From the sequence record SRR2962707_3000: a stretch of DNA of 32,343 nt; one strand, 5' to 3'. A program made the translations under genes and the position numbers. Positions 39 through 16,329 of the stretch are shown one piece after another; position 1 is the first letter of the stretch, and every line of letters starts with the position of its first letter. Below the pieces are notes generated by a model that was not told where the DNA came from, searched no databases, and was given only the letters and a program-made list of their open reading frames with translations.

Positions 39-68
39 CTGGATGATCAAAGGATCATCCGGTTTTTT
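39..68. terminator. Probable bidirectional intrinsic terminator downstream of argJ
   Basis: GGATGATC-aaag-GATCATCC perfect 8-bp stem (41-60), T-run at 63-68 on + and A-run at 31-35 (T-run on -). Confidence 0.7.
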
Positions 69-74: not shown

Positions 75-1292
75 TTAAGTGGTGTACATTGAATTGAACA
101 TAACATAATCGGTTGAAAGGTCCGTTCCCCATCCCACTGCCGAAGCTTTGCCTTCTCTGAGCTTCATCTCAATAATGATTTCAGATTTTTTCAAAATGCG
201 TTTGACCAAATTCATATCAAACTCTAATGGCTTGCCCTGATCCAGCATTTGAACTGATTCCTGCTCATTACCCAAAAACAGGTCAACCTTATCTGTATTG
301 AATTTTACCCCGGACCGACCCATTGCCGCAAGGACTCTCCCCCAATTAGGATCTCTGCCAAACATGGCAGTTTTCACTAATGATGAGTCTGAAACGACCC
401 GAACGATTTGCCTCGCATCCTTTTTACTCCTGGCACCATTTAGTCGATACTCAATGAACTTTGACGCTCCTTCCCCATCAGAAATAATTAACTTGGCCAA
501 GTATATCATTAGCTCATTCAATTTCTCTTTGAAAAGCTGGTAGTTAGGGTCTCCTACGGAGGAAATGAGCTCATTATCAGCCAGTCCTGTAGTCATAATG
601 GAGGCCATATCATTGGTAGAAGTATCTCCATCTACCGTAATCATATTGAACGAATCATTGACAGCCTCTTTGAATGCTTTATCCAGAAGCTTTTGTTCGA
701 TATTGATATCTGTAAAAGTAAAAGCCAGCATGGTAGCCATGTTCGGATGAATCATCCCTGAGCCCTTGGCTATCCCAGCAATGTTTATGGTGTTTCCGTC
801 AATATCAAACTCCACATGTCCCTCTTTCGCAAACGTATCTGTTGTTAAAATTGCATTCGCTGCAAATGAACCTGCTCTTGAATTCTCAGAAAGGTTTTTC
901 ACATTATCCTTAATGCCTTGAACAACCTCATCTGTCGGAAACTCTTTTCCTATGATCCCGGTAGAAGAAACTAATACCTGATTCACATCGATATCCAATT
1001 CTTCCGCAGTTGCTCTAGCCATTGCGAGGGCTCCTTCTTCTCCTTGCTTTCCGGTTACTGCGTTCGCATTCCCAGAGTTGACCACAATAGCCCGTGCTAT
1101 ATTGTCTGTTTCTTTTAAATGCTTTTGTGAGAGTTTGACCGGAGCTGCACAAACCAAATTTTGTGTAAACGTGGCAGATACCTTAGCCGGCACTTCTGAA
1201 TACATAATTGCCAGGTCACGTCTCATGGATTTAACACCTGTGTGAGCTCCCCAGCACTTGATCCCACGAACATTAGTGATATTTCTAATCAT
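75..1292 (-). CDS. argJ: Bifunctional glutamate N-acetyltransferase / ornithine acetyltransferase
   Basis: NSGNANAVTG, SSTGIIG, ILTTDT, AKGSGMIHPNMATML (autocleavage Thr), DGDTSTND, DGEGASK, DPNWGR motifs. Start moved to ATG at 1292 (MIRNIT) to avoid overlap with argC. Confidence 0.95.
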   Translation of the reverse strand: MIRNITNVRGIKCWGAHTGVKSMRRDLAIMYSEVPAKVSATFTQNLVCAAPVKLSQKHLKETDNIARAIVVNSGNANAVTGKQGEEGALAMARATAEELDIDVNQVLVSSTGIIGKEFPTDEVVQGIKDNVKNLSENSRAGSFAANAILTTDTFAKEGHVEFDIDGNTINIAGIAKGSGMIHPNMATMLAFTFTDINIEQKLLDKAFKEAVNDSFNMITVDGDTSTNDMASIMTTGLADNELISSVGDPNYQLFKEKLNELMIYLAKLIISDGEGASKFIEYRLNGARSKKDARQIVRVVSDSSLVKTAMFGRDPNWGRVLAAMGRSGVKFNTDKVDLFLGNEQESVQMLDQGKPLEFDMNLVKRILKKSEIIIEMKLREGKASAVGWGTDLSTDYVMFNSMYTT

Positions 1293-1311
1293 GTCAATAA
1301 TTGAAAGGTAT

Positions 1312-2349
1312 TTAAGGTTGTAATGGAACAATAGCCAGACCTTCATCCTCATTGAGATCCAGCATTAAATTCATATTCTGAACAGCCTGACCAGCCGCTC
1401 CTTTTACTAAATTATCAATGACTGAAACCGTAATAATGGTTTTAGTACGACCATCATAAGTCACATACAAATCAGCATAATTGGTCCCCCTCACCTGTTT
1501 AAGAGAAGGCACCTGTTCTACAAGCCTAACAAATGGCTCGGTTTCATAGTAGTCTTTAAATATTTTCTGAATAAGTTCTTCCGAAATATCTTTCACTGGT
1601 TTAGAGTAAGACGTTGATAAAATACCTCTATCCACTGGTAGCAAATGCGGAGTAAAAAGAACGGAGGACTCCTCACCGGAATATGCATTGATCACTTCCT
1701 GAATTTCTATGGTGTGTCGGTGGTTCTTTACGCCATAAGCTGTGAAATTGTCATTTACCGCAGGAAAATGCGTGTTTGGTTTTGCCTTATTTCCTGCTCC
1801 TGTTACTCCGGTTTTGGAGTCTACAATTAGGTAGTCTTTGTCTATGATTCCTTCTTTTAAAAGCGGTGCGAGAGCCAATATTGCTGAAGTGGGAAAGCAA
1901 CCCGGGTTGGCTACCAGTTTTGCTTTTCTGATCTTAGCTCGAAATAGTTCCGGCAATCCAAAAACTGCAGCCTCAAAGCCTTTCGGAAAGTTGTGATCCT
2001 TCTTGTACCACGACTTGTAAACATCAGGAGATGATAGTCGGAAGTCCCCTGAAAGGTCAACAATCTTGAAGTCCCGGTCCAAATGATCTTTCACGAAATC
2101 CATGGATACGCCATGCGGAAGAGCTAAAAACACAATATCAAGCTTGTGTTTATCGATCTCCTCGATCCCTACAAGAGGTGCATCAAAAATTCCCTGAAAT
2201 TGTGGGTGAACATCAATAAAACGCTCTCCTTTCCTGGAGTCTGCTGTTATCACTGAAACCTCAACCGAAGGGTGATTGATGAGAATACGAACCAACTCTG
2301 ATCCGGTATAGCCGGTAGCTCCTACGATTCCTATTTTGTATTTACTCAT
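1312..2349 (-). CDS. argC: N-acetyl-gamma-glutamyl-phosphate reductase
   Basis: IVGATGYTG Rossmann motif, DLSGDFRL, ANPGCFPT catalytic Cys, DNLVKGAAGQAVQNMN. Confidence 0.96.
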   Translation of the reverse strand: MSKYKIGIVGATGYTGSELVRILINHPSVEVSVITADSRKGERFIDVHPQFQGIFDAPLVGIEEIDKHKLDIVFLALPHGVSMDFVKDHLDRDFKIVDLSGDFRLSSPDVYKSWYKKDHNFPKGFEAAVFGLPELFRAKIRKAKLVANPGCFPTSAILALAPLLKEGIIDKDYLIVDSKTGVTGAGNKAKPNTHFPAVNDNFTAYGVKNHRHTIEIQEVINAYSGEESSVLFTPHLLPVDRGILSTSYSKPVKDISEELIQKIFKDYYETEPFVRLVEQVPSLKQVRGTNYADLYVTYDGRTKTIITVSVIDNLVKGAAGQAVQNMNLMLDLNEDEGLAIVPLQP

Positions 2350-3542
2350 TTTCTATTTTCCTTGATTGATTGTAGCAATACATCAAAAACTATTTGAAGT
2401 TCGTCTTTGGTGATGTTTAAAGGCGGCACAATCCGAACCACATTGTCAGCTGTAGCATTGGCCAGTACTTTGTGCTCCATCATTGTAGCGACGATCGGTT
2501 TAGACTCGACAGCCAGAACAACACCAAGCATCAACCCCTCACCCCGGACGCCTTCTATTTCAGGGTAATCAACTGAGGCCTTCATGACTTTTTCTCTAAA
2601 CCACTGGCCATTTTCGGTTGCCGCTTCCATCAGATTTTCCTCTTCAATCACCTCAAGTGTGGCCAATGCTGCTGCACAAGCAAGTGGATTCCCTCCGAAG
2701 GTTGTACCATGATCGCCCCAATCAATAGCTGCTCCTACTTTTTCACTGGCAAGCACTGCTCCAATGGGCATTCCTCCACCTAAGCCTTTGGCCAGCGTCA
2801 TCACATCCGGTCTAACACCGTAATGTTCAAACGCAAACATTTTTCCTGTTCGTCCGATACCGCATTGAACTTCATCAAATACCAGCACAATACCTTCTTC
2901 ATCACAGAATGCTCGTAGATCTTTTAAAAACTGCTTTTCAGCGGGAATAATACCTCCTTCTCCCTGGATGGGCTCCATCATTATTGCTCCAATATCCTTA
3001 TTCACCTTTTCTTTCACCAGGTTCATGTCATTGAAGGGAATGTGACAAAAACCTGCAGGAATAGGGTCAAACCCATTCATCATCGCTTTCTTTCCGGTCG
3101 CAGCGATAGTAGCCATCGTTCTACCATGAAAGGCATTTTTCATGCTTATGATCGTTCCGCCTCTTCCGTTTTTACTAGCATATTTCCGTGCAATCTTTAT
3201 GGCCCCTTCTGCAGCTTCAGCCCCGCTATTTCCAAAAAAAACACGTTTCAATCCCGATAGCTCTGCTAGTTTTTTAGCAAGTACCATTTGGGGCTCTGAC
3301 AAATAGAAATTGGAAATATGAATCAGGTTTTTTGCCTGCTCTTGTATGGCATTTACCACTTTGGGATGCGAATGACCAACATTATTGACAGCAATACCGG
3401 CTAGCGCGTCAATGTATTCATTCCCCTCCATGTCCCACAACCTGGCTCCTTTCCCCTTTTTAAAGGCCAGCGGATATCTTTTGAATGTCGGTAAATAATA
3501 TTCTTTGTCTAATTGATGTAACTCCTCTGTACTGTAACTCAT
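2346..3542 (-). CDS. argD: Acetylornithine aminotransferase (class III PLP)
   Basis: NSGAEAAEGAIK, FHGRT, EPIQGEGG, DEVQCGIGRTG, TLAKGLGGG, HGTTFGGNPL; lies between argB and argC. Confidence 0.92.
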   Translation of the reverse strand: MSYSTEELHQLDKEYYLPTFKRYPLAFKKGKGARLWDMEGNEYIDALAGIAVNNVGHSHPKVVNAIQEQAKNLIHISNFYLSEPQMVLAKKLAELSGLKRVFFGNSGAEAAEGAIKIARKYASKNGRGGTIISMKNAFHGRTMATIAATGKKAMMNGFDPIPAGFCHIPFNDMNLVKEKVNKDIGAIMMEPIQGEGGIIPAEKQFLKDLRAFCDEEGIVLVFDEVQCGIGRTGKMFAFEHYGVRPDVMTLAKGLGGGMPIGAVLASEKVGAAIDWGDHGTTFGGNPLACAAALATLEVIEEENLMEAATENGQWFREKVMKASVDYPEIEGVRGEGLMLGVVLAVESKPIVATMMEHKVLANATADNVVRIVPPLNITKDELQIVFDVLLQSIKENRK

Positions 3543-3544
3543 GT

Positions 3545-4357
3545 TTATTTTGTAATCGTAGTACCTACTTGATTCGTTGTATTGATTGCTTCGATTAATT
3601 GTTCGGGCTTTGTTCCATTTATAATTCGTGCTCTCCTTGATCCTGCTTCAATGGCCTGCTGACAAGACTCTATTTTAGGTATCATCCCTCCGACAATCAC
3701 ATTGTCCATCATGTCAGGGATTTGCGCCAACGCCACTTCAGTGATTAACGATCCCGGATCATCTTTATCTCTCCTGATTCCATCCACATCAGTCAAAACC
3801 AAATACTCGGCTTTTAAGGCGCCCGCAATGGCGCCAGCCATCATATCTGCATTGATGTTGTAAGAAATTCCATCTTTATCAGCAGATACACATGCCACAA
3901 TGGGTATGTATCCTTTATCCAGAAGATCATTCAAAATTTCAGGCTGAACTGTTGCCACATCTGCTACCTGCCCCAGATCAATTTGCTTATCTCCTTCATA
4001 ATGAAACCGCTTTTTGGTGGTAATCATTCCCCCATCCTTTCCAGAAAGCCCTACGGCCTTCCCTCCTAATGAATTAATCAAGCCGACAAGGCTGGTATTA
4101 ACTTCTCCTTTCAGGGCCATTTCAATATACTTCATAGCCTCTGGTGTTGTTTTTCGATGACCCCCAATGAATTCAGATTGTATCTGTACTTTATCCAAAA
4201 TAGCATTGATAAAAGGACCACCTCCATGAACTATAACAATGCGATTACCCGCTTTATGAATGTCAACCACATTCTTCAAGATGGATCTTTTGAGGGGCTC
4301 ATCAATCATCGCATTGCCCCCATATTTTATGACAATGGTTTCTTGACTACTACTCAT
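3545..4357 (-). CDS. argB: Acetylglutamate kinase
   Basis: VIKYGGNA, IVHGGGP, GLSGKDG, YNINAD, LTDVDG, GGMIPK motifs. Confidence 0.95.
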   Translation of the reverse strand: MSSSQETIVIKYGGNAMIDEPLKRSILKNVVDIHKAGNRIVIVHGGGPFINAILDKVQIQSEFIGGHRKTTPEAMKYIEMALKGEVNTSLVGLINSLGGKAVGLSGKDGGMITTKKRFHYEGDKQIDLGQVADVATVQPEILNDLLDKGYIPIVACVSADKDGISYNINADMMAGAIAGALKAEYLVLTDVDGIRRDKDDPGSLITEVALAQIPDMMDNVIVGGMIPKIESCQQAIEAGSRRARIINGTKPEQLIEAINTTNQVGTTITK

Positions 4358-5165
4358 TCGTGCTGGATAGGTTTAAGAGACTATCTGTTTTCTTAATAAG
4401 CTTGTTGTTGGCAGTTAATTGATTGTCCAATGACTTTACTTGATAAGCAAGATTCTTAATGGATTTCCTCTGTTCATTTATCAACTGCTCAACACCCTTC
4501 ATGTTTTCAGTATTTGAGGATATTCGATTTGTAAGCGAAACCAGATCTTCACTCTGAGCCCGAAGTGAGTCGATGATTTGTCGATTAAGCTTTTGATTTT
4601 CAATCACTTCCTGATTGTTATCTACAATCGTTTGATGATCAGATTGAATGTTTTTACCAATGATTTGAACATGGTACAATAAGTCCACTCCAACGACAAT
4701 CAGCAAGGCATACATAGCATACTTAAACCCTGACGAGATAGTATTCATGCGGAAATTACGCTTTGACCATTCAATCAATGAAGCATTAAAGCACATTTGG
4801 TAATTACCATACTTGAGGAGATCAGATGCTAGACTAATGTCCGGCAGGAAAATAACTTTTGAATCCTCAGGTGCATTACCGCACGTTTGTGTATTATCTT
4901 CAATTGGAAGTTTGGACCATACACTCAAATAGCCCGCATGCTCCAATTCTTTGATTAGGTTAAGTCTGCCAACCAGGTGATTCATCACCTGTTCAAGTTC
5001 CTCATCACTCACTTTAAGACTGATGGCTTGCTGAAATGTGCTAATCTCAAATTTTCCTTTTGGAAAGTTGAAAGCAACAAAGTCTATAAGTCCAAATGAC
5101 TTCTTACCTGACCGGATCAGGCTTTTCACTAGCTTCTTTTCTTCTTTGCTTAGCGGCCTTTTCAT
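4350..5165 (-). CDS. Hypothetical protein with one central hydrophobic segment and a C-terminal coiled coil
   Basis: 271-aa ORF with YAMYALLIVVGVDLLY hydrophobic stretch then a Q/N/L/I heptad-like tail; overlaps both neighbours (4 and 8 nt). Confidence 0.75.
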   Translation of the reverse strand: MKRPLSKEEKKLVKSLIRSGKKSFGLIDFVAFNFPKGKFEISTFQQAISLKVSDEELEQVMNHLVGRLNLIKELEHAGYLSVWSKLPIEDNTQTCGNAPEDSKVIFLPDISLASDLLKYGNYQMCFNASLIEWSKRNFRMNTISSGFKYAMYALLIVVGVDLLYHVQIIGKNIQSDHQTIVDNNQEVIENQKLNRQIIDSLRAQSEDLVSLTNRISSNTENMKGVEQLINEQRKSIKNLAYQVKSLDNQLTANNKLIKKTDSLLNLSSTNE

Positions 5166-6319
5166 TTCACGATCCTCCTTGGAATGGCTGCTGGTAGTCT
5201 GCTCAACATTTCATTGTTCAATAACTGAGTCACCTGGGTAAAAGAACTGATATTGATTGTATTATTCTTCTGGCGGCCAACAAGTACAACCTCCTCTCCC
5301 ACACTCACATCCTCAATATGGCTAACATCCACCATGAACAAATTCATGTTGATCAAGCCAACAATGGGCGCCTTCTTCCCTTTTATTAGAACATGTCCTC
5401 GGTTTGATTGTGCTCGCGGATACCCATTGGAGTAACCCAAAGGCATCACGGCTACTTTCATGTCCTGAGTGGCCTGATAGGCTGTCCCATATCCTATAAA
5501 TTCACCTGCATCCACGTCACGTATATCCATCACATCTGTCTTCCAGGTAAACAATCGTTTCAAGGAACTATTGGAGGACTTTCCGGTCTCCTGCAAATGC
5601 ATGAAGTAGATATCCGGGCTTGGCCAAAAACCATATTGTGCGACTCCTATCCGAACCATATCATATACTGTATCAGGATACGCCAATGCAGCAGCAGAAC
5701 ATGCTATGTGCCTTATTTCCGGCATGTAGCTTTTCTTTTTGCAGGTCCTTAAAAACTCTTTGTATTTCTTATGCTGACGATCAATTTTGAATTGATTAGA
5801 TAAACTTTCGGCCCCACCGAAATGTGTGCAAAGTCCGGTAAATTCAATGTAGTTCTTATGCTTCTTTACAAAATTGAGACAATCGATGAACTCAGTCTCA
5901 GGTAAGCCTGTACGATTAGCTCCCGTTTCTACTTCCAGATGAACTTTAGCTTTTTTGTCCAGCTTCTTTGCTTCTTCCAGTACCAGTGGAAGTCGTTCAT
6001 AATTAAAAACATAAAACTCGATCTCGTGATCGATTGCCCAGTGGATGTCCTCATCATATAAAATACCCATGATCATCACATCACTGGATGGAGACTTGGC
6101 TTCCAATACCTCCTCTGCTTCAAAAGCTGAGGCGGTAGCAAAATGATTAACCCCTGCTTTCTCAGCCATCTTTACAAATTCCCTGATCCCATGGCCGTAA
6201 GCATTGGCTTTCACAACAGATGAGATGCGAACTTCCGGACCAATTTTTTTTTGAATAAAATTGATGTTTCCGGTGAGGGATGACTGACTGAGCTCAATGC
6301 GAGATGAGTGCCTTACCAT
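5162..6319 (-). CDS. alr: Alanine racemase-family PLP enzyme (divergent specificity residues)
   Basis: VVKANAYGHG PLP-Lys motif, MVRIG, IGYG catalytic Tyr, GYSNG; has INMN in place of VCMD and NNE in place of NYE. Confidence 0.85.
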   Translation of the reverse strand: MVRHSSRIELSQSSLTGNINFIQKKIGPEVRISSVVKANAYGHGIREFVKMAEKAGVNHFATASAFEAEEVLEAKSPSSDVMIMGILYDEDIHWAIDHEIEFYVFNYERLPLVLEEAKKLDKKAKVHLEVETGANRTGLPETEFIDCLNFVKKHKNYIEFTGLCTHFGGAESLSNQFKIDRQHKKYKEFLRTCKKKSYMPEIRHIACSAAALAYPDTVYDMVRIGVAQYGFWPSPDIYFMHLQETGKSSNSSLKRLFTWKTDVMDIRDVDAGEFIGYGTAYQATQDMKVAVMPLGYSNGYPRAQSNRGHVLIKGKKAPIVGLINMNLFMVDVSHIEDVSVGEEVVLVGRQKNNTINISSFTQVTQLLNNEMLSRLPAAIPRRIVK

Positions 6320-8298
6320 AGTTTGGTTTGTTCGTTCCAGATATATGATTTACCCCAACTCTCCTGTGCTAACTCCTTCACTTTCTTAATTACTTTTTCA
6401 TCCACCAGGTGCAGATGAGCGTTTGCTTCCAATGCATTATAATGAAAAGCATAAATCCGTGCCGCAAACTGGTGAAATGGCAGAGATGACTCTCCGGATT
6501 TTTCCTTATTTCCATGTACGGAGGGCCTGATGTCTTGTCCCCAATCCTGCCTTCCCTCATTATTTGGGTTTAAAAAGTAGGCACGATATTCACCGGATTT
6601 GTCTTTATCTACACGAAGAAGTGAAACAGCGTGGAAACCCAACATGTCGCCATGGTTGCTTGTGATAAAGATGCCAATCGGAATCGGATAAACCACTTCC
6701 CTGCCGTCGTTGAATTCAGGATGAAATGCAGCGTAGAAAATTCGAATGAATCCTTCGAAATCCATGATGGAATTACTGAGGTAATCGTAGCAGGATGCAA
6801 ACCCTACCGGAATCCAATGACCATACATTGCCGGATTTACCCATTTGTGTGGATCGTCTGTTCTGCCCATGGACCGACGCATCATTTCATTATATATTCG
6901 ATCGAGGTGTGGAACGAGAATCGCTGAAACAACATCAAGATTATAATCCAGCTTTTCTACCAGCCCTTTGCTTAGTTTGATTGATTCCAGATCATGATTT
7001 TCGAAGCGCATCATCAGGTTGTTCTGAGTAGTAACCGTGATAATCATATCAATAAGCTTTGCAGGAGCATGCTGGCTCCACATGCTTATTCCACGTGCAG
7101 ACTGACAAGTGGGATTATTCCCCTGCCCTATACCTAAAGGTTGACCTAGCACTTTGATGGTACCTCCCAGCAGATATTGTAGGGCTGAAGCTTTGGAATC
7201 AGATTTGCCAATAGATTTCAAAATTCTGGCTTCAACCTGAGAATTAATCTTTGCTCTTCTGAGATTTTCAAAACCGGCTCTTACAGGGCGTCTTGAGAGT
7301 AGATTCCGACCTAAGACTCTACTAAGTCCATAAATGCATTGATAATTCTCAGGGGTGATAACCTCCAGGATGAGCGAAGTGACAAATTCACGAAACTTTT
7401 CCCATTCGGCTTTTCCTCGATCATTCAATGCCAGACAATGAGGCACAAGCTCAGGAAACTGATTCGCCAGGTGTAGGAGCAAAACCGCGTGTTGCTGACT
7501 TACGAGTCCGGTTTTACTCATCGATTTCCCCATCTCGATGGTTTCTTCTTTTAATGCATCATAATCTGCTTTTTCAATGCACGATTTATAATCATCCAGA
7601 GAACGATGCTCCTGTGAAACCTTTGTTGGTGCCTTTATAGCATTAATAAATCTTCGGGTATTCTTATCAATTTCAGAAGATCCGGATGTGTCAAATCGTT
7701 GATCAATGAGTCGAATCAATTCACGTGCCTTCCGTGTTTCTATGGGTCGCTGACTACAGATTAAATCTATTTCTTCTGAAAGCTTTTGATATACCCCACT
7801 CAAGTCAATTTCGGAAAGCAGATATCCGAAAAGATTAGTGGCCTTTTTTACTTCCCTATCACTCATGACCATTCGGGTTTCCTCAGAAAGGTCATTGAGC
7901 GCAAATTCCAGATTGTGAACCAAAATCTCCTCTAATAAGGTGTTCGCCTCTTCCCTTGAAATTTGATCAGAAGGAGCCCCATTAACATAGGATAGAAGTC
8001 TTAATTCAGATAAAATTTCAAAACTCGAAGTAGGATGACCAGCCTGAAGGGTACCCTTAACCAAAGTGGGTACCAGCTTATTTGGATTATCCCAGGATGT
8101 CCCTTTAAAGAATCCCATTTGGTCCAGTTCGGGACTCTTTCTATACAGATATGTGAGCCCATCCCTGGTAAGAGCCAGAATATCGATCTGACTGGCCAGC
8201 TTGGCTGCTTTATCCTTTCTGGTCAGGTCTGAAGCCGTTTTGAAATCTTCAAAACTTGTTTCAAAGTTCTGAAAAAGTTTGTGTTCGGCAATTTCCAT
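6313..8298 (-). CDS. Hypothetical protein, predicted C-terminal papain-like (clan CA) cysteine peptidase/transpeptidase domain
   Basis: 661-aa ORF with GQGNNPTCQS (Gln six residues before Cys), GFHAVSLL and YFLNPNN..DWG. The CDS is certain; the function is inferred. Confidence 0.7.
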   Translation of the reverse strand: MEIAEHKLFQNFETSFEDFKTASDLTRKDKAAKLASQIDILALTRDGLTYLYRKSPELDQMGFFKGTSWDNPNKLVPTLVKGTLQAGHPTSSFEILSELRLLSYVNGAPSDQISREEANTLLEEILVHNLEFALNDLSEETRMVMSDREVKKATNLFGYLLSEIDLSGVYQKLSEEIDLICSQRPIETRKARELIRLIDQRFDTSGSSEIDKNTRRFINAIKAPTKVSQEHRSLDDYKSCIEKADYDALKEETIEMGKSMSKTGLVSQQHAVLLLHLANQFPELVPHCLALNDRGKAEWEKFREFVTSLILEVITPENYQCIYGLSRVLGRNLLSRRPVRAGFENLRRAKINSQVEARILKSIGKSDSKASALQYLLGGTIKVLGQPLGIGQGNNPTCQSARGISMWSQHAPAKLIDMIITVTTQNNLMMRFENHDLESIKLSKGLVEKLDYNLDVVSAILVPHLDRIYNEMMRRSMGRTDDPHKWVNPAMYGHWIPVGFASCYDYLSNSIMDFEGFIRIFYAAFHPEFNDGREVVYPIPIGIFITSNHGDMLGFHAVSLLRVDKDKSGEYRAYFLNPNNEGRQDWGQDIRPSVHGNKEKSGESSLPFHQFAARIYAFHYNALEANAHLHLVDEKVIKKVKELAQESWGKSYIWNEQTKLW

Positions 8299-8319
8299 TA
8301 AATGTGGCCTCTAACTGTT

Positions 8320-9543
8320 TTAAACGTAGAAATCTACTTTTTGATAATGCTTCAATAGTTCTGTCATCCGGTCCGGATCCTCTCCTTTAAAGTTGATCGT
8401 TCCGAAATGATTACCAAATCCTTCACGGTCATCACTGATTTTTTGAGTACTCAGAGGTGGTAATAGTGTATGGTCCACAAAGTAAGGTTCGTTATTCAAT
8501 TCTTCCGGAATCTCAAGTTTAGAGAACTGTTTTTTGTGAGGATAGATCATCACATTTCCATGATAATTTTTCGGTTTATTATTCGGATCAGGTAAGATCT
8601 CGGCGATTTCCTTATCCGTCAGGCTCGGGTCATGAATCTGAACAAAAGCAGCCAACGCATCAAACTCATAGGATTTACCACATAACTCCAGAATATGCCC
8701 TCCCGGTATCCTGCAGGCCGTTTCACCAAAGTTCAACTCATCATTTTCTGTTAGGAACCATTCAGGGTGTACCATTCCATATTCGATTCCGAAAATGTCC
8801 ACCAGTTTCTGAACATGCTTATGAATTAAATCTCTTTTGGACTCGAGGTAGTGACCCTCCGGGATAAAGTTTGAATAGCCGAGTTTCACATACTCAGTAA
8901 TATTTAAAAATTTGATTTCTCCACCATGGATAAACGCTTCGCAAGAAAATTCTCGCCCGGGAAGGTGGCTTTCTGCCAGACAAGGGAAATCGCCATCTTC
9001 ACATTCCTGATCTATCTGATCCATAGATCTCAACAGTCGATGACCAACTGTACCAGCTGAGGCAAAGGGTTTAATATGAACCCAGCTATCCTCTTCACCA
9101 TCGAGTTGAAGGTTGGCTTCATTCAATCGCTTCATGAAGGCTTTCACTCCTTCTTTATTGTAAACTTCTTCAAATAGGCCAACGCGCAAACCTCCTATTA
9201 GTGCCTTTCGCTTCATCATGGCCTTGTTTCGAAATAGAAACGCCCGGTTAAGCACACGAGGATCATCCCTGTAGATTGAGTTGAGTGCTCCTGCCCATTC
9301 CACCGTTTCTTCGAATAATGGAACAGCGACATCTACGTCATAAGCTTTCAACTTCTCTGCCAGGTCAAGTGAGTTTGATGTATCACTCCATTCATCTAGC
9401 TGATATGGAACAAAGGGTATATTATTTTCTTTTGCGTAAGGTTCAAAATCAGGAAAGGAAACCACTACAAACGGTTTCCCGGTCTTCTGCATACTCTCAA
9501 TTACGGGCAAACTCCACCCCATCAATGCGAAACATTTAGCCAT
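8320..9543 (-). CDS. ATP-grasp carboxylate-amine ligase, L-amino-acid ligase-like
   Basis: FRNKAMMK, IKPFASAGTVG, ESHLPGREFSCE, HPEWF and FGETACRIPGG correspond to ATP-grasp peptide-ligase motifs. Confidence 0.85.
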   Translation of the reverse strand: MAKCFALMGWSLPVIESMQKTGKPFVVVSFPDFEPYAKENNIPFVPYQLDEWSDTSNSLDLAEKLKAYDVDVAVPLFEETVEWAGALNSIYRDDPRVLNRAFLFRNKAMMKRKALIGGLRVGLFEEVYNKEGVKAFMKRLNEANLQLDGEEDSWVHIKPFASAGTVGHRLLRSMDQIDQECEDGDFPCLAESHLPGREFSCEAFIHGGEIKFLNITEYVKLGYSNFIPEGHYLESKRDLIHKHVQKLVDIFGIEYGMVHPEWFLTENDELNFGETACRIPGGHILELCGKSYEFDALAAFVQIHDPSLTDKEIAEILPDPNNKPKNYHGNVMIYPHKKQFSKLEIPEELNNEPYFVDHTLLPPLSTQKISDDREGFGNHFGTINFKGEDPDRMTELLKHYQKVDFYV

Positions 9544-9793
9544 CTTTTATATCATTTATTGGATTCAACAAGAAAAGGAAAGAACGATCGCCTTTCCTGA
9601 AATGAAAAATTTCGGTTGTTAGGTTGTCGATTGTTGACATTATTAACAATATAAAACCATCCCGCTCGGAAGGTTCAAACTATTTTCGATTCATTAATAT
9701 AATCATATAAAATATTTATTTATTCATATAATTACATCCGAAACTTAAGTTGGGAAAGAAGCAAATTATTGCCAGATCGTATACTCAAGTGAT

Positions 9794-9801
9794 TAATTTT
9801 G
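9794..9801 (+). promoter_or_regulatory. Bacteroidota sigma-A -7 element for hutH-hutU
   Basis: TAATTTTG matches TAnnTTTG, 21 nt before the hutH ATG. Confidence 0.55.
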
Positions 9802-9822
9802 TTGCCACAACAACTTTTATCT

Positions 9823-11403
9823 ATGACAAGTCAAACTTCAGTTTTTCACTACGGAGAAGATCACCTGACCGTAGGTATCGCACTTTCAATAGCAAGAGGT
9901 AACACGAAGGGTATCCTGACTGAAAAGACCAGAAAAGAAATCAACAGAAGTGCGAATGAGGTAAAAACGATCGCCGAGGGTGACAAGGCTGTTTATGGAA
10001 TAAATACCGGATTTGGGCCTCTTTGTACTACCCAAATATCAAAGAAAGAAACCAGCACACTGCAGAAGAACCTGCTAATGAGCCATGCGGTGGGATTAGG
10101 TAATCCTATCTCTGAGGAGCTTGCCAAGCTGATGATGATTCTGAAGGTTCACGCTTTGGCAAAAGGATTTTCGGGTGTAAAGGAAGAAACGATTGATCGG
10201 ATCATCCACCATATAGATAATGACATTATTCCACTCGTCCCCGAGCAAGGATCAGTTGGGGCTTCAGGAGACTTGGCACCTCTGGCTCACTTATTTCTGC
10301 CACTTATTGGATTGGGTAAAGTAAAGGTGAATGGTGAGTTTATACCCACAGAAAAATGGCTTCAACAGGAAGGCCTATCCCCTATTCAACTTGGGGCTAA
10401 AGAAGGCTTGGGTCTCATCAATGGGACTCAGTTCATAGCTGCTCATGCTGTTTCTGTGGTAGAAAGATTACAAAATGTGTTAACTCATGCAGACATTTCT
10501 GGCGCCATGATGGTTGAGGGACTTTTAGCCTCTGTCAAGCCTTTTTCGCCTGAGCTCCATGATGTAAGGCCATATAAGGGCAGTAAACATGTGGCGGCAT
10601 TTATCAGCAACTTACTTGACGGTTCCGAGGTAGTGCACTCACATGCCAATTGTGCACGGGTTCAGGATCCCTATTCGCTTCGTTGCATGCCTCAGGTACA
10701 CGGTGCATCTCGCAACGCCTGGCTCCACGTAAAGGAAATGCTGGAAGTAGAAATAAACTCCGTTACTGATAACCCGATCGTATTTAGCAAAGACCATACA
10801 ATCAGTGGGGGCAACTTTCATGGCCAGCCCATGGCCCTCCCGATTGATTATGCGTGCCTCGCAGCTGCAGAGGTGGGTAATATATCTGATAGAAGAATTT
10901 ATCTATCACTGGAAGGCGATACGCCGGGTGTACCTAAACTCTTATTGAAAGAAACAGGCACCAACTCCGGTTTTATGATCCCTCAATACACGACTGCCGC
11001 ATTGGTAAGTGAAAACAAAGGGCTTTGCTTCCCTGCCAGTGCCGATAGTATCCCAACATCACTGGGACAGGAAGATCACGTCAGTATGGGGTCAATCGGT
11101 GGACGAAAAGCACTCAGAGTGGTGGAAAATGTCGAAAAGATTATTGGAGTAGAGATTTTCTGTGCAGCTCAGGCACTTGATTTTCATCGGCCATTGAAGT
11201 CAAGCAAAATCATGAGCGCAATACATGATCATGTGAGAAGCAAAATCGATCATATCACCAAAGATGGGGTAATGAATGAGGTAATGGAAACTGCAATAGA
11301 AATGGTTCGAAATAAAGAACTAATCCAGGTAGCCAGACAAACAGCAGAGAAGGAGGGCATTTCCTTAGATACAGAGTTTAGTAATGAATTTGATAAATTT
11401 TAA
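9823..11403 (+). CDS. hutH: Histidine ammonia-lyase
   Basis: VYGINTGFG, LMSHAVG (Ser-His specificity pair), GASGDLAPL (MIO), QDPYSLRC, GGNFHG, QEDHVSMG; ATG at 9823. Confidence 0.95.
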   Translation: MTSQTSVFHYGEDHLTVGIALSIARGNTKGILTEKTRKEINRSANEVKTIAEGDKAVYGINTGFGPLCTTQISKKETSTLQKNLLMSHAVGLGNPISEELAKLMMILKVHALAKGFSGVKEETIDRIIHHIDNDIIPLVPEQGSVGASGDLAPLAHLFLPLIGLGKVKVNGEFIPTEKWLQQEGLSPIQLGAKEGLGLINGTQFIAAHAVSVVERLQNVLTHADISGAMMVEGLLASVKPFSPELHDVRPYKGSKHVAAFISNLLDGSEVVHSHANCARVQDPYSLRCMPQVHGASRNAWLHVKEMLEVEINSVTDNPIVFSKDHTISGGNFHGQPMALPIDYACLAAAEVGNISDRRIYLSLEGDTPGVPKLLLKETGTNSGFMIPQYTTAALVSENKGLCFPASADSIPTSLGQEDHVSMGSIGGRKALRVVENVEKIIGVEIFCAAQALDFHRPLKSSKIMSAIHDHVRSKIDHITKDGVMNEVMETAIEMVRNKELIQVARQTAEKEGISLDTEFSNEFDKF

Positions 11404-11480
11404 TAACCGCTGAGATAACAGAGAAAAGCTCTGAGAACACTGTGGTATCTCAGCTCTCTTCGCGATTAAAAGGTTAAAAA

Positions 11481-13478
11481 ATGACATTTAAAGAACAAAT
11501 ACTTCAAGGAATACCAGATCGCCTACCAGCCAAAAAGCCTTTGAAAGTAGGAGTAAACAGGGCTCCTAAACGAAAGGACATTCTATCTGTTGATGAAAAA
11601 AAACTAGCCGTTCGCAATGCGCTTAGATACTTCCCTAATGAGTGGCACAAAGAATTAGCACCTGAATTTGCCCAGGAGCTCAATGACTTTGGACGAATCT
11701 ACATGTACCGATTTATGCCGGAATATGATATGTATGCCCGAGCGATTGAAGAATATCCTGCAAAATCCAATCAGGCAGCAGCTATCATGCTGATGATCCA
11801 AAACAACCTGGATCCTGCGGTTGCACAGCATCCCGAAGAGCTGATTACCTATGGAGGAAATGGCGCGGTATTCCAAAACTGGGCACAATACCTGCTGACC
11901 ATGCAGTACCTGGCGACTATGAGTGATGAACAGACTTTGCACATGTATTCCGGGCACCCAATGGGACTTTTTCCTTCTCATAAAGATGCTCCGCGTGTAG
12001 TCGTCACCAATGGCATGATGATTCCGAACTATTCTCAACCAGATGATTGGGAACGATTCAATGCCCTGGGAGTTACGCAATACGGTCAAATGACTGCAGG
12101 TTCATACATGTATATCGGTCCTCAGGGAATCGTCCATGGAACTACCATTACGGTCATGAATGCCTTCCGAAAAAAGTTAGGATCAGGTGTTTCTTCTGCA
12201 GGTAAGATCTTTTTGACTGCTGGTCTCGGAGGGATGAGTGGCGCACAGCCTAAGGCAGGAAATATTGCCGGATGTATCACCGTATGTGCGGAAGTAAATC
12301 CCAATGCTGCCCATAAACGACATGATCAGGGATGGGTGGATGAGATCATTGAAGACCTGGATGCGCTTGTTACGAGAGTTAAAAAAGCTAAAGAAAATGA
12401 GGAGGTGGTTTCCATTGCTTTTGTTGGAAATGTGGTGGATGTCTGGGAACGATTCTTTGATGAAAACATCACGATTGAACTTGGCTCTGACCAAACATCA
12501 CTCCATAATCCTTGGTCTGGTGGCTATTACCCTGCGGGTTTAAGTTTTGAAGAATCGAATGACCTGATCCGTAACAACCCCAAAAAATTCAAGGAAAAAG
12601 TGCAAGAATCACTCAGGAGACATGCTAATGCAGTGAATAAACATGCAGCGCGAGGTACCTACTTCTTTGACTATGGAAATGCGTTCTTGCTTGAGTCATC
12701 ACGCGCTGGCGCAGAGGTGATGGCTGATAATGGAATTGACTTTAAGTATCCATCTTATGTGCAGGACATACTGGGACCGATGTGCTTCGACTATGGATTT
12801 GGACCTTTCCGATGGGTGTGTACTTCCGGAAAAGCAGAGGACCTGAGAAAGTCTGATCAGATCGCATTGGAAGTGATGAAGGAAATCAAAGCCTCTTCAC
12901 CTCAGGAAATCCAGCAGCAAATGCAAGACAACATCCGATGGATTGAGGAAGCTGAAAGCAACAAATTGGTCGTGGGCTCTCAGGCCCGAATTCTTTATGC
13001 AGATGCAGAAGGGCGCTCTAAGATTGCCGAGGCATTTAACCAGGCTATCAAAAAGGGTGAAATCACTGCTCCTATTGTTTTGGGAAGAGATCATCATGAT
13101 GTGAGTGGAACAGACTCACCGTATCGGGAAACCAGCAATATCTATGATGGAAGTAAATACACCGCTGACATGGCTATCCAAAATGTGATTGGCGACAGCT
13201 TTAGGGGAGCCACGTGGGTTTCCATTCACAACGGAGGTGGTGTTGGCTGGGGCGAAGTGATTAATGGTGGGTTTGGAATGCTACTGGATGGAAGCGACGA
13301 TGCTGACCGGAGACTTAAATCGATGCTTTTTTATGACGTAAATAATGGAATTGCCAGACGAAGCTGGGCACGTAATGATGAGGCTTTGTTTGCAATCAAA
13401 AGAGAGATGGAACGAACGCCGGAATTGAAGGTAACACTGCCCAATCTGGTAGATGATGACTTGTTAGACGAAATCTAG
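11481..13478 (+). CDS. hutU: Urocanate hydratase (long ~665-aa form)
   Basis: YGQMTAGSYMYIGPQGIVHGT, GLGGMSGAQP, SDQTSLH, GRDHHD, HNGGGVGWG motifs. Confidence 0.96.
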   Translation: MTFKEQILQGIPDRLPAKKPLKVGVNRAPKRKDILSVDEKKLAVRNALRYFPNEWHKELAPEFAQELNDFGRIYMYRFMPEYDMYARAIEEYPAKSNQAAAIMLMIQNNLDPAVAQHPEELITYGGNGAVFQNWAQYLLTMQYLATMSDEQTLHMYSGHPMGLFPSHKDAPRVVVTNGMMIPNYSQPDDWERFNALGVTQYGQMTAGSYMYIGPQGIVHGTTITVMNAFRKKLGSGVSSAGKIFLTAGLGGMSGAQPKAGNIAGCITVCAEVNPNAAHKRHDQGWVDEIIEDLDALVTRVKKAKENEEVVSIAFVGNVVDVWERFFDENITIELGSDQTSLHNPWSGGYYPAGLSFEESNDLIRNNPKKFKEKVQESLRRHANAVNKHAARGTYFFDYGNAFLLESSRAGAEVMADNGIDFKYPSYVQDILGPMCFDYGFGPFRWVCTSGKAEDLRKSDQIALEVMKEIKASSPQEIQQQMQDNIRWIEEAESNKLVVGSQARILYADAEGRSKIAEAFNQAIKKGEITAPIVLGRDHHDVSGTDSPYRETSNIYDGSKYTADMAIQNVIGDSFRGATWVSIHNGGGVGWGEVINGGFGMLLDGSDDADRRLKSMLFYDVNNGIARRSWARNDEALFAIKREMERTPELKVTLPNLVDDDLLDEI

Positions 13479-13481: not shown

Positions 13482-14060
13482 TTACAAAACAGCATGAGGC
13501 TCTGATTCCCAATTGCCAAATATCCAATTACCCGGAAGTGTGGGGTCATTTGAAGCAAAGAATTCTTCTACCGCATTCATTAAATCATACCGTGATAGTT
13601 TGTAGTTCTGGGTTTTGTCCATCAGGCTAAATGCCTTATCGCAATAAGCCCGGTCGATTCCAAAAATGTCATAGAAGTCCTCGTATTCATTTTTTGAAAT
13701 GAAACCGTCCCTGTTCTGGTCGAAGAAATCAAACATGAAGTTGAATATCAGCTCTTTATAATCATCCAGTGTGTCTTCATCCCCTGAGAGAATAACTTCC
13801 TTCAAGAAGAAATCAACCCACTCCTGCTCAGTGACCTGATTAAACGTGAAAGGCTTAATGTCCTTAACTAATGAATTAAAAAGTTTAACAGCCTTATCAG
13901 TAATACGTTTGTGCCCTTTCCCTCCGACTTCATAATCCAAAGTTACGCGCACCTTTTCTACCATTTCGGTAAAGTCATCCATCTGAAGACACCCATTACT
14001 GTTGAGGTCCAGGATTCTAAAAAAGTATCCAAGCTTTTTACGCTGAAAATCTGCTGACAT
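13482..14060 (-). CDS. EF-hand calcium-binding protein (calerythrin/SCP-like)
   Basis: EF loops DLNSNGCLQMDD and DQNRDGFISKNE, plus a PGNWIFG C-terminal motif. Confidence 0.8.
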   Translation of the reverse strand: MSADFQRKKLGYFFRILDLNSNGCLQMDDFTEMVEKVRVTLDYEVGGKGHKRITDKAVKLFNSLVKDIKPFTFNQVTEQEWVDFFLKEVILSGDEDTLDDYKELIFNFMFDFFDQNRDGFISKNEYEDFYDIFGIDRAYCDKAFSLMDKTQNYKLSRYDLMNAVEEFFASNDPTLPGNWIFGNWESEPHAVL

Positions 14061-14078
14061 GTTTGATTAGGTTTGGCG

Positions 14079-14086
14079 CAAAAGTA
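14079..14086 (-). promoter_or_regulatory. Sigma-A -7 element for the EF-hand gene
   Basis: Reverse complement TACTTTTG, 18 nt upstream of the ATG. Confidence 0.6.
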
Positions 14087-14104
14087 GGAAGTCTTAAGCT
14101 ATTT

Positions 14105-15175
14105 TCAGACTACCCGCTTTTCGATGTAATCAGAATTGAAAATCCCGAGTGCGCCCATGTATTTAAGCTTAAATGAAACCAGATCTCCCACTTTGTAATT
14201 ACTGCTTGATTCTCCTAGATCCACAATTAACATATCGGAGCTTGCACCAGTAATTTCAATGGAGTCATCATCGGGAATAAGAAAATCCTCGGAAACATCT
14301 AAAAGACCTATGTCCAAAATGGCGCGATAGGATGTTTTGCCATAATCCTCTTCATTGATCTCAAATGTTTCACCGGAAGGATTAGCCTCCATGTAACCAC
14401 TCGGTATTTTCGGTTTTTCCGTGATCTCAATGATTTCGGAATGGAGCTTAAATACATCTCCCTCCATTCCCGGTACGACCTCCTGAGTAAATAAGTCCAA
14501 GCCAAAGAACAGCGTCTCACCAATCCTGAAATGATTGATTCCATCCGGTACTTGCTTTCTAAACAACAATGGAATCACAACAGATGTACCTCCCGTTACC
14601 CATGGTATCTTGCGATTAAACTTAGCCTCTATAAGTTGCTCATAAAGAGATAGTTGTACCAACTTATCCTCAGACGGCATAACCCCGTAAAGGCAGTTTA
14701 GATTTGAGCCAATACCTGTTACTTCAATGTTAGGTAGATTAAAAACCGACTCATAGAAATCCATCAGGTGATCTCCCATCACACCTTCTCTCAAGTCTCC
14801 AAGCTCAATCATGATAATGACCTTGTGCTTTTTGTTTTGCTTTACCGCTTCATCAGAAATCCACTTGATGGTTTTGTATTCGGTATTGAAACTGGCATCT
14901 GCATATTTAACCAGTCGGGGAATACTCCTTTTCGCAGGTGGTTTTATGTATACTGTCTGCACACTTGGATCAAGCTTTTTGATGACTTCCAAATTACTGA
15001 TCCTGGAGTCACAAATCTCTTTGGTCCCGAGATCTATCACCTCCTTCAGATACTTCTCATTGCCGCACAGCAACTTGGATACGACAGCCCATTCAATTTC
15101 ATTCTCTTTGAACAGCTTATCCAGAAATTGATAATTCTTCTTCAGTTTGTCTTTATATAATTCTATGAATGCCAT
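14105..15175 (-). CDS. Alanine/ornithine racemase-family PLP enzyme (Orr-like)
   Basis: VVSKLLCG PLP-Lys, ELGDLREGV, GIGSNLNCLYG, GGTS, RIGE and GASSDM match the clostridial ornithine racemase subfamily pattern. Confidence 0.8.
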   Translation of the reverse strand: MAFIELYKDKLKKNYQFLDKLFKENEIEWAVVSKLLCGNEKYLKEVIDLGTKEICDSRISNLEVIKKLDPSVQTVYIKPPAKRSIPRLVKYADASFNTEYKTIKWISDEAVKQNKKHKVIIMIELGDLREGVMGDHLMDFYESVFNLPNIEVTGIGSNLNCLYGVMPSEDKLVQLSLYEQLIEAKFNRKIPWVTGGTSVVIPLLFRKQVPDGINHFRIGETLFFGLDLFTQEVVPGMEGDVFKLHSEIIEITEKPKIPSGYMEANPSGETFEINEEDYGKTSYRAILDIGLLDVSEDFLIPDDDSIEITGASSDMLIVDLGESSSNYKVGDLVSFKLKYMGALGIFNSDYIEKRVV

Positions 15176-15177
15176 TC

Positions 15178-16329
15178 TTATTTTATTATGCGAGGAATTT
15201 TAGTTGGCAATCGAGTAAGCAGCTCGTAATTAAGCTGATCACTGAGTTCGCCAAACGAAGCAACACTGATTTCTACATCCCCGCTTTTTCCTATTAAAGT
15301 TACTTCATCTCCTTTTTTTACATTTTCAAGCTCTGAAACATCTATGGCGAGGTTGTTCATATTCACCATCCCGATCACAGAAACCCTGAAACCACCTATC
15401 AAAACACGACCTGTGTTACTAAGTGACCTGCTGAAGCCATGAGAATAGCCTATCGGCACAATAGCAATCTTCATGTCACGCTGAGCAAGGTAAGTGGTGC
15501 CATATCCTACAAATTCACCCATTTCAACATGCTTTACACTCATGATGGTGCTTTTCCATGCAATTAGTCTCCGAAGGGGTTCTGTTTTATCCTCTTTGCC
15601 CTTTAGATACTCTATAAAAATTTCCCGACTTGGCCAGAAGCCATACTGTAGAATGCCGATTCTAACCATATCCTCATGCATATCAGGAAGGCGAATAGAA
15701 GCAGCTGAGCAGCACGTATGTCTCATTTTTGGCTCAATACCATTATCAACTAACAACTGAGCCATTTGATTGAAATTCTTTTTCTGCTCCTCGACTCGCA
15801 AATAATTAGCTATACTCTCAGCGCCTGCATAATGTGTACAGAGTCCCTCAATAATTAAATGGTCCTGATACTTTTTAATGAAAGGAATGAGACGGGATAC
15901 TTCTTCATGATCAAACCCCGTTCTGTTCATGCCGGTTTCTAACTCAATGTGAATTTTAGCCTTCTTTTTTAACCTATCAGCCGTTTCAGCTGCTGCCTTA
16001 ATGCGATCGAATTCAAAAACAAAAAAGGAAATGTCATTTTCAATAGCCCACTCAAGGCTTTCATTGGAGATGTAACCCATAATCATGAGTTCAGTCCTTT
16101 CGCTTTTTATGGCCTGAAATACCTCCCTTGCCTCATCGGCACTGTAAACAGAGAAATGATCAACGCCCAATGACTCGGCCATTGGAACAAAAGCATCAAT
16201 TCCATGACCATATGCGTTTCCCTTGACTACTGAAGAAAAACGGGTTCCCTTTTTAATGAGACCCCTTAAGAAGCGAAGGTTATGTTCATAAGCCTCCCTG
16301 CTAAGCTCAATATATGATGGACTACTCAT
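15178..16329 (-). CDS. alr: Alanine racemase-family PLP enzyme
   Basis: VVKGNAYGHG, MVRIG, VGYG, GYSHG, QLNYELL; has VNMN in place of VCMD. Start set at ATG 16329 (8-nt overlap with the upstream gene). Confidence 0.85.
   Translation of the reverse strand: MSSPSYIELSREAYEHNLRFLRGLIKKGTRFSSVVKGNAYGHGIDAFVPMAESLGVDHFSVYSADEAREVFQAIKSERTELMIMGYISNESLEWAIENDISFFVFEFDRIKAAAETADRLKKKAKIHIELETGMNRTGFDHEEVSRLIPFIKKYQDHLIIEGLCTHYAGAESIANYLRVEEQKKNFNQMAQLLVDNGIEPKMRHTCCSAASIRLPDMHEDMVRIGILQYGFWPSREIFIEYLKGKEDKTEPLRRLIAWKSTIMSVKHVEMGEFVGYGTTYLAQRDMKIAIVPIGYSHGFSRSLSNTGRVLIGGFRVSVIGMVNMNNLAIDVSELENVKKGDEVTLIGKSGDVEISVASFGELSDQLNYELLTRLPTKIPRIIK

Follow-up and report, generated by a model that had tools for sequence, protein, structure and literature searches.

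The window analysed here (SRR2962707_3000) is a stretch of 32,343 nucleotides (nt), and all operon coordinates are given on it. Eight co-oriented open reading frames (ORFs) lie on its minus strand between positions 75 and 9543. They encode an ATP-grasp ligase, an enzyme of 661 amino acids (aa), a racemase, a 271-aa protein and four enzymes of ornithine synthesis, and this operon and the pathway that it may specify are the subject of this report. Its genes and flanking signals are as follows.

8320..9543, minus strand: ligase gene, ATP-grasp carboxylate-amine ligase (L-amino-acid-ligase type); 407 aa, opens the operon
6313..8298, minus strand: gene of the 661-aa enzyme, unnamed family; predicted helical N-terminal domain and calpain-like clan-CA domain
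5162..6319, minus strand: cassette racemase gene, Alr family, pyridoxal phosphate (PLP)-dependent; 385 aa, substrate pocket altered
4350..5165, minus strand: gene of the 271-aa protein, no family; 271 aa
3545..4357, minus strand: argB, acetylglutamate kinase; 270 aa (TIGR00761, 219 bits, cut-off 151)
2346..3542, minus strand: argD, acetylornithine aminotransferase; 398 aa (TIGR00707, 501.6 bits, cut-off 410)
1312..2349, minus strand: argC, N-acetyl-gamma-glutamyl-phosphate reductase; 345 aa (TIGR01850, 426.6 bits, cut-off 234)
75..1352, minus strand: argJ, bifunctional ornithine acetyltransferase / N-acetylglutamate synthase; 425 aa (NF003802, 464 bits, cut-off 351)
41..60, minus strand: intrinsic-terminator-like hairpin at the operon end; 8-pair stem and then a T run, directly after argJ
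9544..9798, minus strand: promoter/leader region common to the operon and the divergent hutH; 255 nt, two conserved blocks and a hairpin

The ligase and 661-aa genes are separated by a gap of 21 nt. The following genes overlap by 7 nt (661-aa/racemase), 4 nt (racemase/271-aa) and 8 nt (271-aa/argB), after which come a 2-nt gap (argB/argD), a 4-nt overlap (argD/argC) and a 41-nt overlap (argC/argJ). The true start of argJ is probably its 21st codon (position 1292), which converts the last overlap into a 19-nt gap and shortens ArgJ to 405 aa (its relatives have 405-407). Given this start, no junction exceeds 21 nt, and an earlier reading made from the sequence only, which had described eight tightly spaced, co-oriented genes with a terminator after argJ, is borne out on both points (the hairpin at 60..41 on the minus strand has 8 pairs and a T run). 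ArgJ, ArgB, ArgC and ArgD each score above the equivalog cut-off of their family, and the full ArgJ-type (cyclic) ornithine pathway is thus encoded.

Relatives of the operon were collected in two sets. The first contains 49 loci encoding relatives of the 661-aa protein; the second, from a profile-based scan, contains 122 loci, in which all ORFs were clustered. The nearest complete genome is that of an Ekhidna sp. metagenome-assembled genome (MAG) with a 3.9-Mb chromosome (locus L001, genome G001/G002), which is 98% identical in this region and served as the reference for the host genome; its operon-region proteins are 86-98% identical to those of the window. The host is taken to be an Ekhidna-like marine bacterium of the Cytophagales. 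The ligase gene is directly upstream of the 661-aa gene in all 46 loci of the first set that include upstream DNA (the other 3 of the 49 contigs start inside or at the 661-aa gene). The racemase gene is present in 29 of these 49 loci, in 27 of them downstream and co-directional, and all 29 belong to Bacteroidota, Balneolales and a few other lineages. Among the 122 loci, 117 have the 661-aa cluster, 106 the ligase cluster and 70 the racemase cluster. The next commonest neighbours are argD-like (18), argC (15), argB (14) and argJ (9) genes. The conserved core is the two-gene pair of ligase and 661-aa enzyme, extended to three to four genes in Cytophagales, and argB-D-C-J is accessory. The sequence-only reading had taken all eight genes as one unit; with only the pair constant and argJ adjoining it in 9 of the 122 loci, that view has to be given up. 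The same reading had proposed a survey of the ligase and 661-aa neighbourhoods, and this survey does place arg genes next to ligase homologues in several independent layouts, although only in a minority of loci. The cassette occurs in many phyla, including a Halobacteriales archaeon MAG (L045), and its distribution within families is patchy. In a Planctomycetota MAG (L176:8723-11923), ligase and 661-aa protein are encoded by one unbroken ORF of 1066 aa, as residues 1-292 and 427-1065, respectively. This ORF, the only fusion among the 122 loci, is either a natural fusion or an assembly artefact.

On balance, and with confidence only a little above even, we read the operon as a pathway with its own ornithine supply, built on the pair of ligase and calpain-like enzyme, that leads to an amide compound containing ornithine, probably a bulk osmoprotective solute. 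The evidence for a dedicated ornithine supply comes from co-occurrence, from gene layout and from the fate of arginine synthesis in the host lineage.

Of 201 evenly sampled Cytophagales genomes, 6 have the 661-aa gene and the same 6 have ArgJ; neither was found in the other 195. ArgJ and the cassette are linked in 4 of these 6 genomes and unlinked in 2. Among 401 Bacteroidia genomes, 4 have both, 1 has the 661-aa gene only (a count that consists of the single unpublished genome G308), 4 have ArgJ only and 392 have neither. Where the genes are linked, the arrangement varies. The module argB-D-C-J lies downstream and co-directional in six loci (L001, L002, L005, L025, L132 and L136) and in the window; it lies upstream and divergent, in the order argJ-C-D-B and then ligase, in three (L153, L155 and L161); and in one genome (G599) argJ is upstream of the cassette on the same strand. 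In 7 Cyclobacterium/Negadavirga loci, the divergent upstream neighbour is a housekeeping arginine cluster (argG, an N-acetylornithine-carbamoyltransferase-like argF', argC, argD and an ArgE-like gene). On a FastTree phylogeny of 112 homologues of the 661-aa protein, arg linkage requires at least 9 gains or losses, and in an IQ-TREE analysis of 25 ArgJ sequences the cassette-linked copies fall into two separately supported clades. Because the adjacency recurs in different builds, it argues for function rather than inheritance.

The ornithine made by this module is not on the way to arginine. In the Ekhidna genomes G002, G003 and G004 (the last being E. lutea), argG gave no match and argH none above the cut-off, in searches that were positive in 14 of 14 control genomes. 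The sole ornithine carbamoyltransferase-like gene of G002 encodes PyrB, aspartate carbamoyltransferase (413 bits, cut-off 263). The carbamoyltransferases of G003 and G004 are likewise only PyrB-like, the PyrB identity having been verified in G002. An arginine operon in the sense of argF, argG and argH in one genome is accordingly absent from G002. The argC and argJ of the operon are the only copies in G002 and G003, and E. lutea has neither gene. The genus Ekhidna looks auxotrophic for arginine. Since the lineage lacks argF, argG and argH, ornithine is there an end product and not an intermediate of arginine synthesis. Two further genomes (G005 and G006) have a separate Bacteroidota-type arg cluster (argG, argC and an argF'-like gene; in G005 also argH on the same contig) beside the operon-linked module. 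More widely, argG is lacking in 8 of the 13 tested genomes with cassette and arg module (G002, G003, G036, G054, G070, G144, G212 and G213, of which G212 and G213 are Cryomorphaceae MAGs whose completeness is not established) and present in 5 (G005, G006, G111, G214 and G216). The proposal that the ornithine genes are dedicated and not housekeeping is upheld by this loss, by the co-occurrence of ArgJ with the cassette and by the several layouts of arg-ligase linkage. Conversely, the outcome that would have undone it, a housekeeping arg copy that is never joined to ligase homologues elsewhere, is contradicted by the same loss and by the recurrence of the linkage in other loci.

The alternative is that the two gene sets lie together by chance, with the arg module feeding polyamines, proline or ornithine lipids and the ligase pair acting on something unrelated. 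Free-standing argB-D-C-J operons do occur in Bacteroidota (L050-L057), the cassette is present without ArgJ in G004, G207 and G209, and decarboxylase and arginase-family genes are found in all Ekhidna genomes. However, chance would hardly produce a co-occurrence of 6/6 versus 0/195, three different adjacent layouts and a chain of gene overlaps that runs from the racemase through argB, and we consider it distinctly unlikely. A polyamine or proline sink for ornithine was rejected as a candidate: a search of 5 genomes yielded no ornithine cyclodeaminase, and Ekhidna genomes with and without the arg module are alike in their decarboxylase and arginase-family (agmatinase) genes.

The ligase scores 21.2 bits against Pfam ATP-grasp_4 (PF13535), under the cut-off of 27, and so is not a member of that family by Pfam's own measure. 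Its closest solved relatives are L-amino-acid ligases (Lals). The profile of the ligase family matches PDB entry 4wd3 ('L-amino acid ligase'; residues 63-312, E-value: 1.3e-11) and 3vot (E-value: 1.1e-4), and the single sequence matches 4wd3 at an E-value of 9.5e-9. A 'GE.A.R..GG' block is common to the ligase and 4wd3. Eight residues (K158, E202, H259, E261, E274, R278, G281 and G282) are invariant in 102 of 102 ligase homologues of at least 380 aa, and the first six of them are, by analogy, putative nucleotide-/metal-binding residues. The claim of a Lal-type ATP-grasp ligase as first gene therefore survives, weakly in Pfam and more clearly through the solved relatives 4wd3 and 3vot. In contrast to the solved Lals, the window ligase falls under the ATP-grasp_4 cut-off and is always paired with the 661-aa calpain-like enzyme; we know of no characterised Lal with such a partner. 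Conservation of the ligase is unusually high: its 120 best database relatives, from Cytophagales, are 78-94% identical and have only generic names.

Lal pathways also make antimetabolites such as rhizocticin and bacilysin, and 4wd3, the nearest solved relative, is presumably RizA from an antibiotic pathway. A bioactive antimetabolite peptide would suit this relationship, and such products often contain ornithine and D-amino acids. Against this, the ligase is unusually conserved and, over many phyla, keeps to the same two-gene core. Genes for export, resistance or tailoring do not recur in the loci, and the MscS neighbours described below fit a solute better. An antimetabolite is very unlikely.

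The 661-aa protein has no Pfam, NCBIfam, PHROG or PADLOC family, with no Pfam match at an E-value of 0.001 or below. A defence system was rejected as a candidate, there being no PADLOC matches. PF00648 is not among the 25 families matched by most of 45 members of the 661-aa family (Pfam, E-values up to 1), which places the protein outside MEROPS C2 and PF00648 as formally defined. A profile search of the PDB and a Pfam search of matches with odd architecture gave nothing usable for this family, and the ESM Atlas offered Peptidase_C2 only as a weak lead (0.75). The family is compact and isolated: 293 cluster representatives were found at an E-value of 0.001 or below among 1.84 billion proteins, and the named relatives are all 'hypothetical'.

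An AlphaFold2 model of the protein was built from the 45-sequence alignment (pLDDT 88.5, pTM 0.81). It is all-helical up to about residue 425 and mixed alpha/beta after it; the domains are an all-helical N-terminal domain (about 1-356) and a calpain-like cysteine-enzyme domain (about 357-620). Foldseek gave no match to this model at an E-value of 0.001 or below, and its best matches were calpain cores (E-values: 0.035-0.3; probability 0.75-0.99). In VIA-align, the 18 top rows are all calpain protease cores, aligned over some 200 residues of model positions 357-620 (Z 6.4-7.3, root-mean-square deviation 4.4-5.1 Å), followed by staphopain (Z 5.4), a Parabacteroides dipeptidyl aminopeptidase (Z 5.2) and cathepsin B (Z 4.5); a VIA Z below 8 can reflect a common arrangement and is not decisive alone. 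Five residues (Q392, C398, H556, N577 and N579) are invariant in 117 of 117 homologues and stand in the clan-CA order Gln-(x5)-Cys...His...Asn. Because the calpain matches agree with this Gln392-Cys398-His556-Asn577/Asn579 set, the 661-aa protein is called, with the caution due to a predicted model, a new family of clan-CA, calpain-like cysteine enzymes outside formal MEROPS C2 / PF00648. The papain-like enzyme of the sequence-only reading holds in this sense, by fold and by motif. The C-terminal domain (357-620) aligns best to the calpain protease core and shares its Gln(-6)-Cys...His...Asn order. It differs from calpains in its low identity (11-15%), in matching no Pfam family and in being fused behind a 356-residue helical domain. 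As their catalytic residues are invariant, both the ligase and the 661-aa enzyme look active.

A second paralogue of the 661-aa protein (606-662 aa) is encoded within a few kb of the first in five Bacillaceae loci (L029, L041, L042, L043 and L192), and the paralogues within the 45-sequence alignment retain the Cys and His. A homologue at G599:C1:263277-265181 has one in-frame TAA, which may mark a pseudogene or a sequencing error.

The pairing of a ligase with a peptidase-fold enzyme suggests two further explanations. In the first, the ligase polymerises ornithine units, in the manner of cyanophycin synthesis or RimK, and the calpain-like enzyme depolymerises them, so that a nitrogen-storage or osmotic oligomer or polymer is made and broken. 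Some Lals and RimK make oligomers. The strict pairing of the ligase with a peptidase-fold enzyme whose Cys/His/Asn set is intact would suit such a cycle, as would the high-flux precursor module. On the other hand, no primer, granule or carrier gene recurs by the cassette in the clustered loci, and the closest solved ligases are dipeptide-forming Lals, which makes an oligomer unlikely. In the second explanation, the pair tags a protein reversibly, the ligase adding terminal residues and the calpain-like enzyme removing them. TTL/vasohibin and RimK are protein-tagging systems. A ligase with a protease-fold partner has the right composition for this, and the large helical N-terminal domain of the 661-aa enzyme could bind a protein; yet the dedicated amino-acid supply, the racemase and the MscS neighbours point to a bulk small molecule, and no conserved target gene lies nearby. 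Protein tagging is the sort of function that we would be surprised to find here.

The cassette racemase belongs to the Alr family (TIGR00492, 286.5 bits, cut-off 168) and keeps the PLP-lysine block 'VVKANAYGHG' and the catalytic-tyrosine block 'GYG'. Alr is encoded three times in each Ekhidna genome: as a MurF-Alr fusion (about 794 aa), presumably the housekeeping racemase, as the cassette copy and as a third paralogue (Alr2) about 9 kb away. The substrate pocket of the cassette copy is altered at two sites. All 28 cassette racemases have 'NMN' where the host MurF-Alr has 'CMD' and solved Alrs have 'CMD' or 'TMD'. In the C-terminal 'YE' block, 27 of the 28 have Asn and one has Ala in place of the Tyr of the host MurF-Alr and the solved Alrs (Gln in 4y2w). 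The alanine-type pocket ('NYE' Tyr and 'CMD') is thus not found in the cassette racemases. In VanT serine racemases, the pocket is opened by the same replacement of Tyr by Asn. The variant racemase first noticed in the sequence is confirmed as an extra, altered Alr paralogue.

The 271-aa protein has no family match in Pfam, NCBIfam or PHROG. It evolves fast and, by eye, has one hydrophobic segment and a coiled-coil-like tail, and so is apparently membrane-anchored. Homologues follow the racemase in L001-L005 and L140, and a remote relative (26% identity over 90 residues, pairwise E-value: 9e-7) is found at the same position in the Marivirga group.

ATP-grasp ligase and racemase pairs make D-Asp cross-bridges (Aslfm/Racfm), and the cassette might similarly modify the cell envelope, with ornithine or a D-amino acid attached to peptidoglycan precursors or to some other component. 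The racemase adjoins an ATP-grasp ligase and is followed by the apparently membrane-anchored 271-aa protein, and a PBP1-type gene lies upstream in Marivirga loci. Nevertheless, no Mur, Fem or flippase gene recurs among the loci, neither core enzyme has a signal peptide (by eye), the racemase is absent from Firmicutes loci, and the distribution is patchy (6/201) and reaches the Halobacteriales archaeon MAG. We hold envelope modification to be decidedly improbable.

The neighbourhood of the cassette points instead to a bulk solute. A gene for a small-conductance mechanosensitive (MscS) channel directly adjoins the cassette, in the same orientation, in five loci (L033, L137-139 and L148). In L132 it immediately follows argJ, and in L005, L166 and L186 it lies at a distance of 2-6 kb. 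In 9 Firmicutes loci the cassette is adjoined by an AblB-type N-acetyltransferase gene (TIGR03827, 'putative beta-lysine N-acetyltransferase'; 238 bits, cut-off 205). These loci belong to Halobacillus, Salimicrobium, Oceanobacillus, Gracilibacillus, Salipaludibacillus, Melghirimyces and a Bacillaceae MAG. The gene is directly upstream of the ligase and co-directional in 8 of the 9; in L186 it follows the 661-aa gene on the opposite strand. Acetyltransferases of the AblB kind make N-epsilon-acetyl-beta-lysine. As recurrent neighbours, MscS belongs to the Bacteroidota loci and the AblB-type acetyltransferase to those of halophilic Firmicutes. The carrier taxa, judged by record titles, lean heavily to marine, saline and soda-lake organisms, and the profile-based scan found the cassette in several Halobacillus and Planococcus genomes. 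According to one review, N-delta-acetylornithine and N-epsilon-acetyllysine are solutes known only from aerobic Firmicutes (PMC2329653), and a second review describes the accumulation of both by Halobacillus halophilus (PMC2412884). The MscS valve, the AblB-type acetyltransferase, the private precursor supply and the salt-biased distribution together favour a bulk solute. Of the four roles that had been offered from the sequence (osmolyte, nitrogen store, envelope modifier and bioactive metabolite), the first is therefore favoured by gene context.

Several other genes lie near the cassette in particular lineages. A histone-deacetylase-family gene (Pfam Hist_deacetyl, no NCBIfam name) adjoins it in L176 and L198 and is nearby in Ekhidna (L001:18650-19564, L003 and L004). 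It is thus found in three lineages, and its product could deacetylate an N-acetylated amine. A second minus-strand operon of the window (13482-19319) encodes a Na+/solute symporter, a 149-aa GNAT protein, an M20 amidohydrolase (TIGR01891, 237 bits), the third Alr paralogue, an Orr-like racemase (NF040742, 314.8 bits, below the cut-off of 480) and an EF-hand protein. Its predicted gene content suggests that it may import and degrade an N-acyl or D-amino-acid compound, and the cassette product could be recycled through it. However, only in the four Ekhidna loci does it adjoin the cassette. All 6 cassette genomes have the Orr-like gene, but so do 20 of the 195 others, and this co-occurrence is suggestive only.

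Upstream of the operon, the blocks 'AGTTTGAAC' and 'TTATAT' are kept across the aligned upstream regions of six Ekhidna-like loci, and they may represent the -33 and -7 elements of a Bacteroidota promoter. A terminator-like hairpin with a T run (9598..9576, minus strand) lies just 5' of the ligase start codon. It was rejected as a regulatory element: it has no Rfam match, and it is kept in L004, partly in L002 and not in L001 or L003. The genes hutH (histidine ammonia-lyase) and hutU (urocanase; together 9799-13478, plus strand) diverge from the same promoter region, a neighbour seen only in Ekhidna loci.

The proposed model for an ornithine-fed solute pathway is as follows. By family membership, ArgJ, ArgB, ArgC and ArgD would convert glutamate to L-ornithine, and the arg module would act as a flux booster, as do dedicated precursor genes in other solute clusters. 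The ligase would use ATP to join ornithine, in amide linkage, to another amino acid or to a carboxylic acid. One of the two partners may enter as its D-form (D-ornithine or a small polar D-amino acid), supplied by the cassette racemase, whose pocket is enlarged by the Tyr-to-Asn change. What the ligase makes would then pass to the 661-aa enzyme and, by way of an acyl-cysteine, be transferred or cyclised to the final compound, or else be hydrolysed in a regulated manner. The product would then be accumulated in bulk as an osmoprotective, nitrogen-rich solute. The identity of the product, and whether it is a dipeptide, are inferences.

A more specific version of this model is a tentative one, to which we attach well under even confidence. 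The product would be an undescribed ornithine-based compatible solute, possibly with D-ornithine or another D-residue, made by the ligase and a calpain-fold transferase or cyclase. In halophilic Firmicutes, the pair and the AblB-like acetyltransferase could underlie the N-delta-acetylornithine and N-epsilon-acetyllysine solutes.

Several observations weigh against a dedicated ornithine-to-solute pathway. The six co-occurring Cytophagales genomes represent four genera, and are kin rather than independent cases. ArgJ is present in 14 of the 18 Bacteroidota carriers checked and lacking from four (G004, G207, G209 and G308), and it occurs without the cassette in 4 of the 401 Bacteroidia genomes. 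Eight close relatives of the operon's ArgJ (L050-L057, 59-77% identity) lie outside the cassette, most of them in the free-standing modules mentioned above, and of 80 further ArgJ loci, not one has the cassette within 10 kb. Firmicutes and Gemmatimonadota loci lack the racemase, and the 6 cassette-bearing genomes of the Cytophagales sample all lack the AblB-type acetyltransferase. Acetylation is thus not a universal step, and the two absences speak against a single universal chemistry. A dipeptide of ornithine and a neutral amino acid would have a net charge of +1, which is unusual for a compatible solute. Lastly, the predicted calpain fold of the 661-aa enzyme is a middling match (Z 7.3, no Foldseek match at an E-value of 0.001 or below).

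The pair of ligase and calpain-like enzyme is conserved over many phyla with its function unassigned, and the operon gives it a first concrete substrate handle, ornithine. Arginine auxotrophs retain a private ornithine pathway only where this pair occurs, which turns an orphan enzyme pair into a testable pathway. If the model is true, it could reveal a new solute class in marine Bacteroidota and a new reaction type for a clan-CA enzyme. It could also identify the genes for the ornithine- and lysine-derived solutes of halophilic Firmicutes, whose chemistry has been known for a long time.

A search of full-text literature, whose coverage ended short of supplements and of the ATP-grasp catalogue of Iyer et al. 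2009, found no description of the cassette gene set; two papers on ATP-grasp dipeptides (PMC13674229 and PMC13725569) concern other systems in the parts consulted. Three known systems nevertheless resemble the operon in part. In the pathway of N-acetylglutaminylglutamine amide (NAGGN), which consists of a GNAT/ATP-grasp enzyme and an amidotransferase, an ATP-grasp ligase and a second modifying enzyme likewise yield an amino-acid-derived osmoprotectant, and the Firmicutes cassette operon also includes a GNAT gene. However, the cassette ligase is not fused to a GNAT domain, its partner has a predicted papain fold and is not an amidotransferase of the Asn-synthetase type, and an ornithine supply and a racemase are attached. 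Pfam and NCBIfam scans of the window operon found no GNAT and no Asn-synthetase-type amidotransferase, and hence no NAGGN-type gene set.

Glutathionylspermidine synthetase/amidase, and glutathione synthetase with phytochelatin synthase, each combine an ATP-dependent amide ligase with a papain-superfamily cysteine enzyme. There, the cysteine enzyme hydrolyses or transfers the product of the ligase, which is the relationship proposed here for the 661-aa enzyme. They differ in that no sequence relation to them was found, the cassette proteins are separate (with one fusion among 122 loci) and genes of thiol metabolism are not linked to the cassette. The third parallel is with the ectoine (ect) clusters, which have a dedicated aspartokinase and an adjacent mscS gene. 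Although their enzymes and their precursor are entirely different, the logic of the operon is the same, with solute genes, a private precursor supply and a mechanosensitive channel as neighbour.

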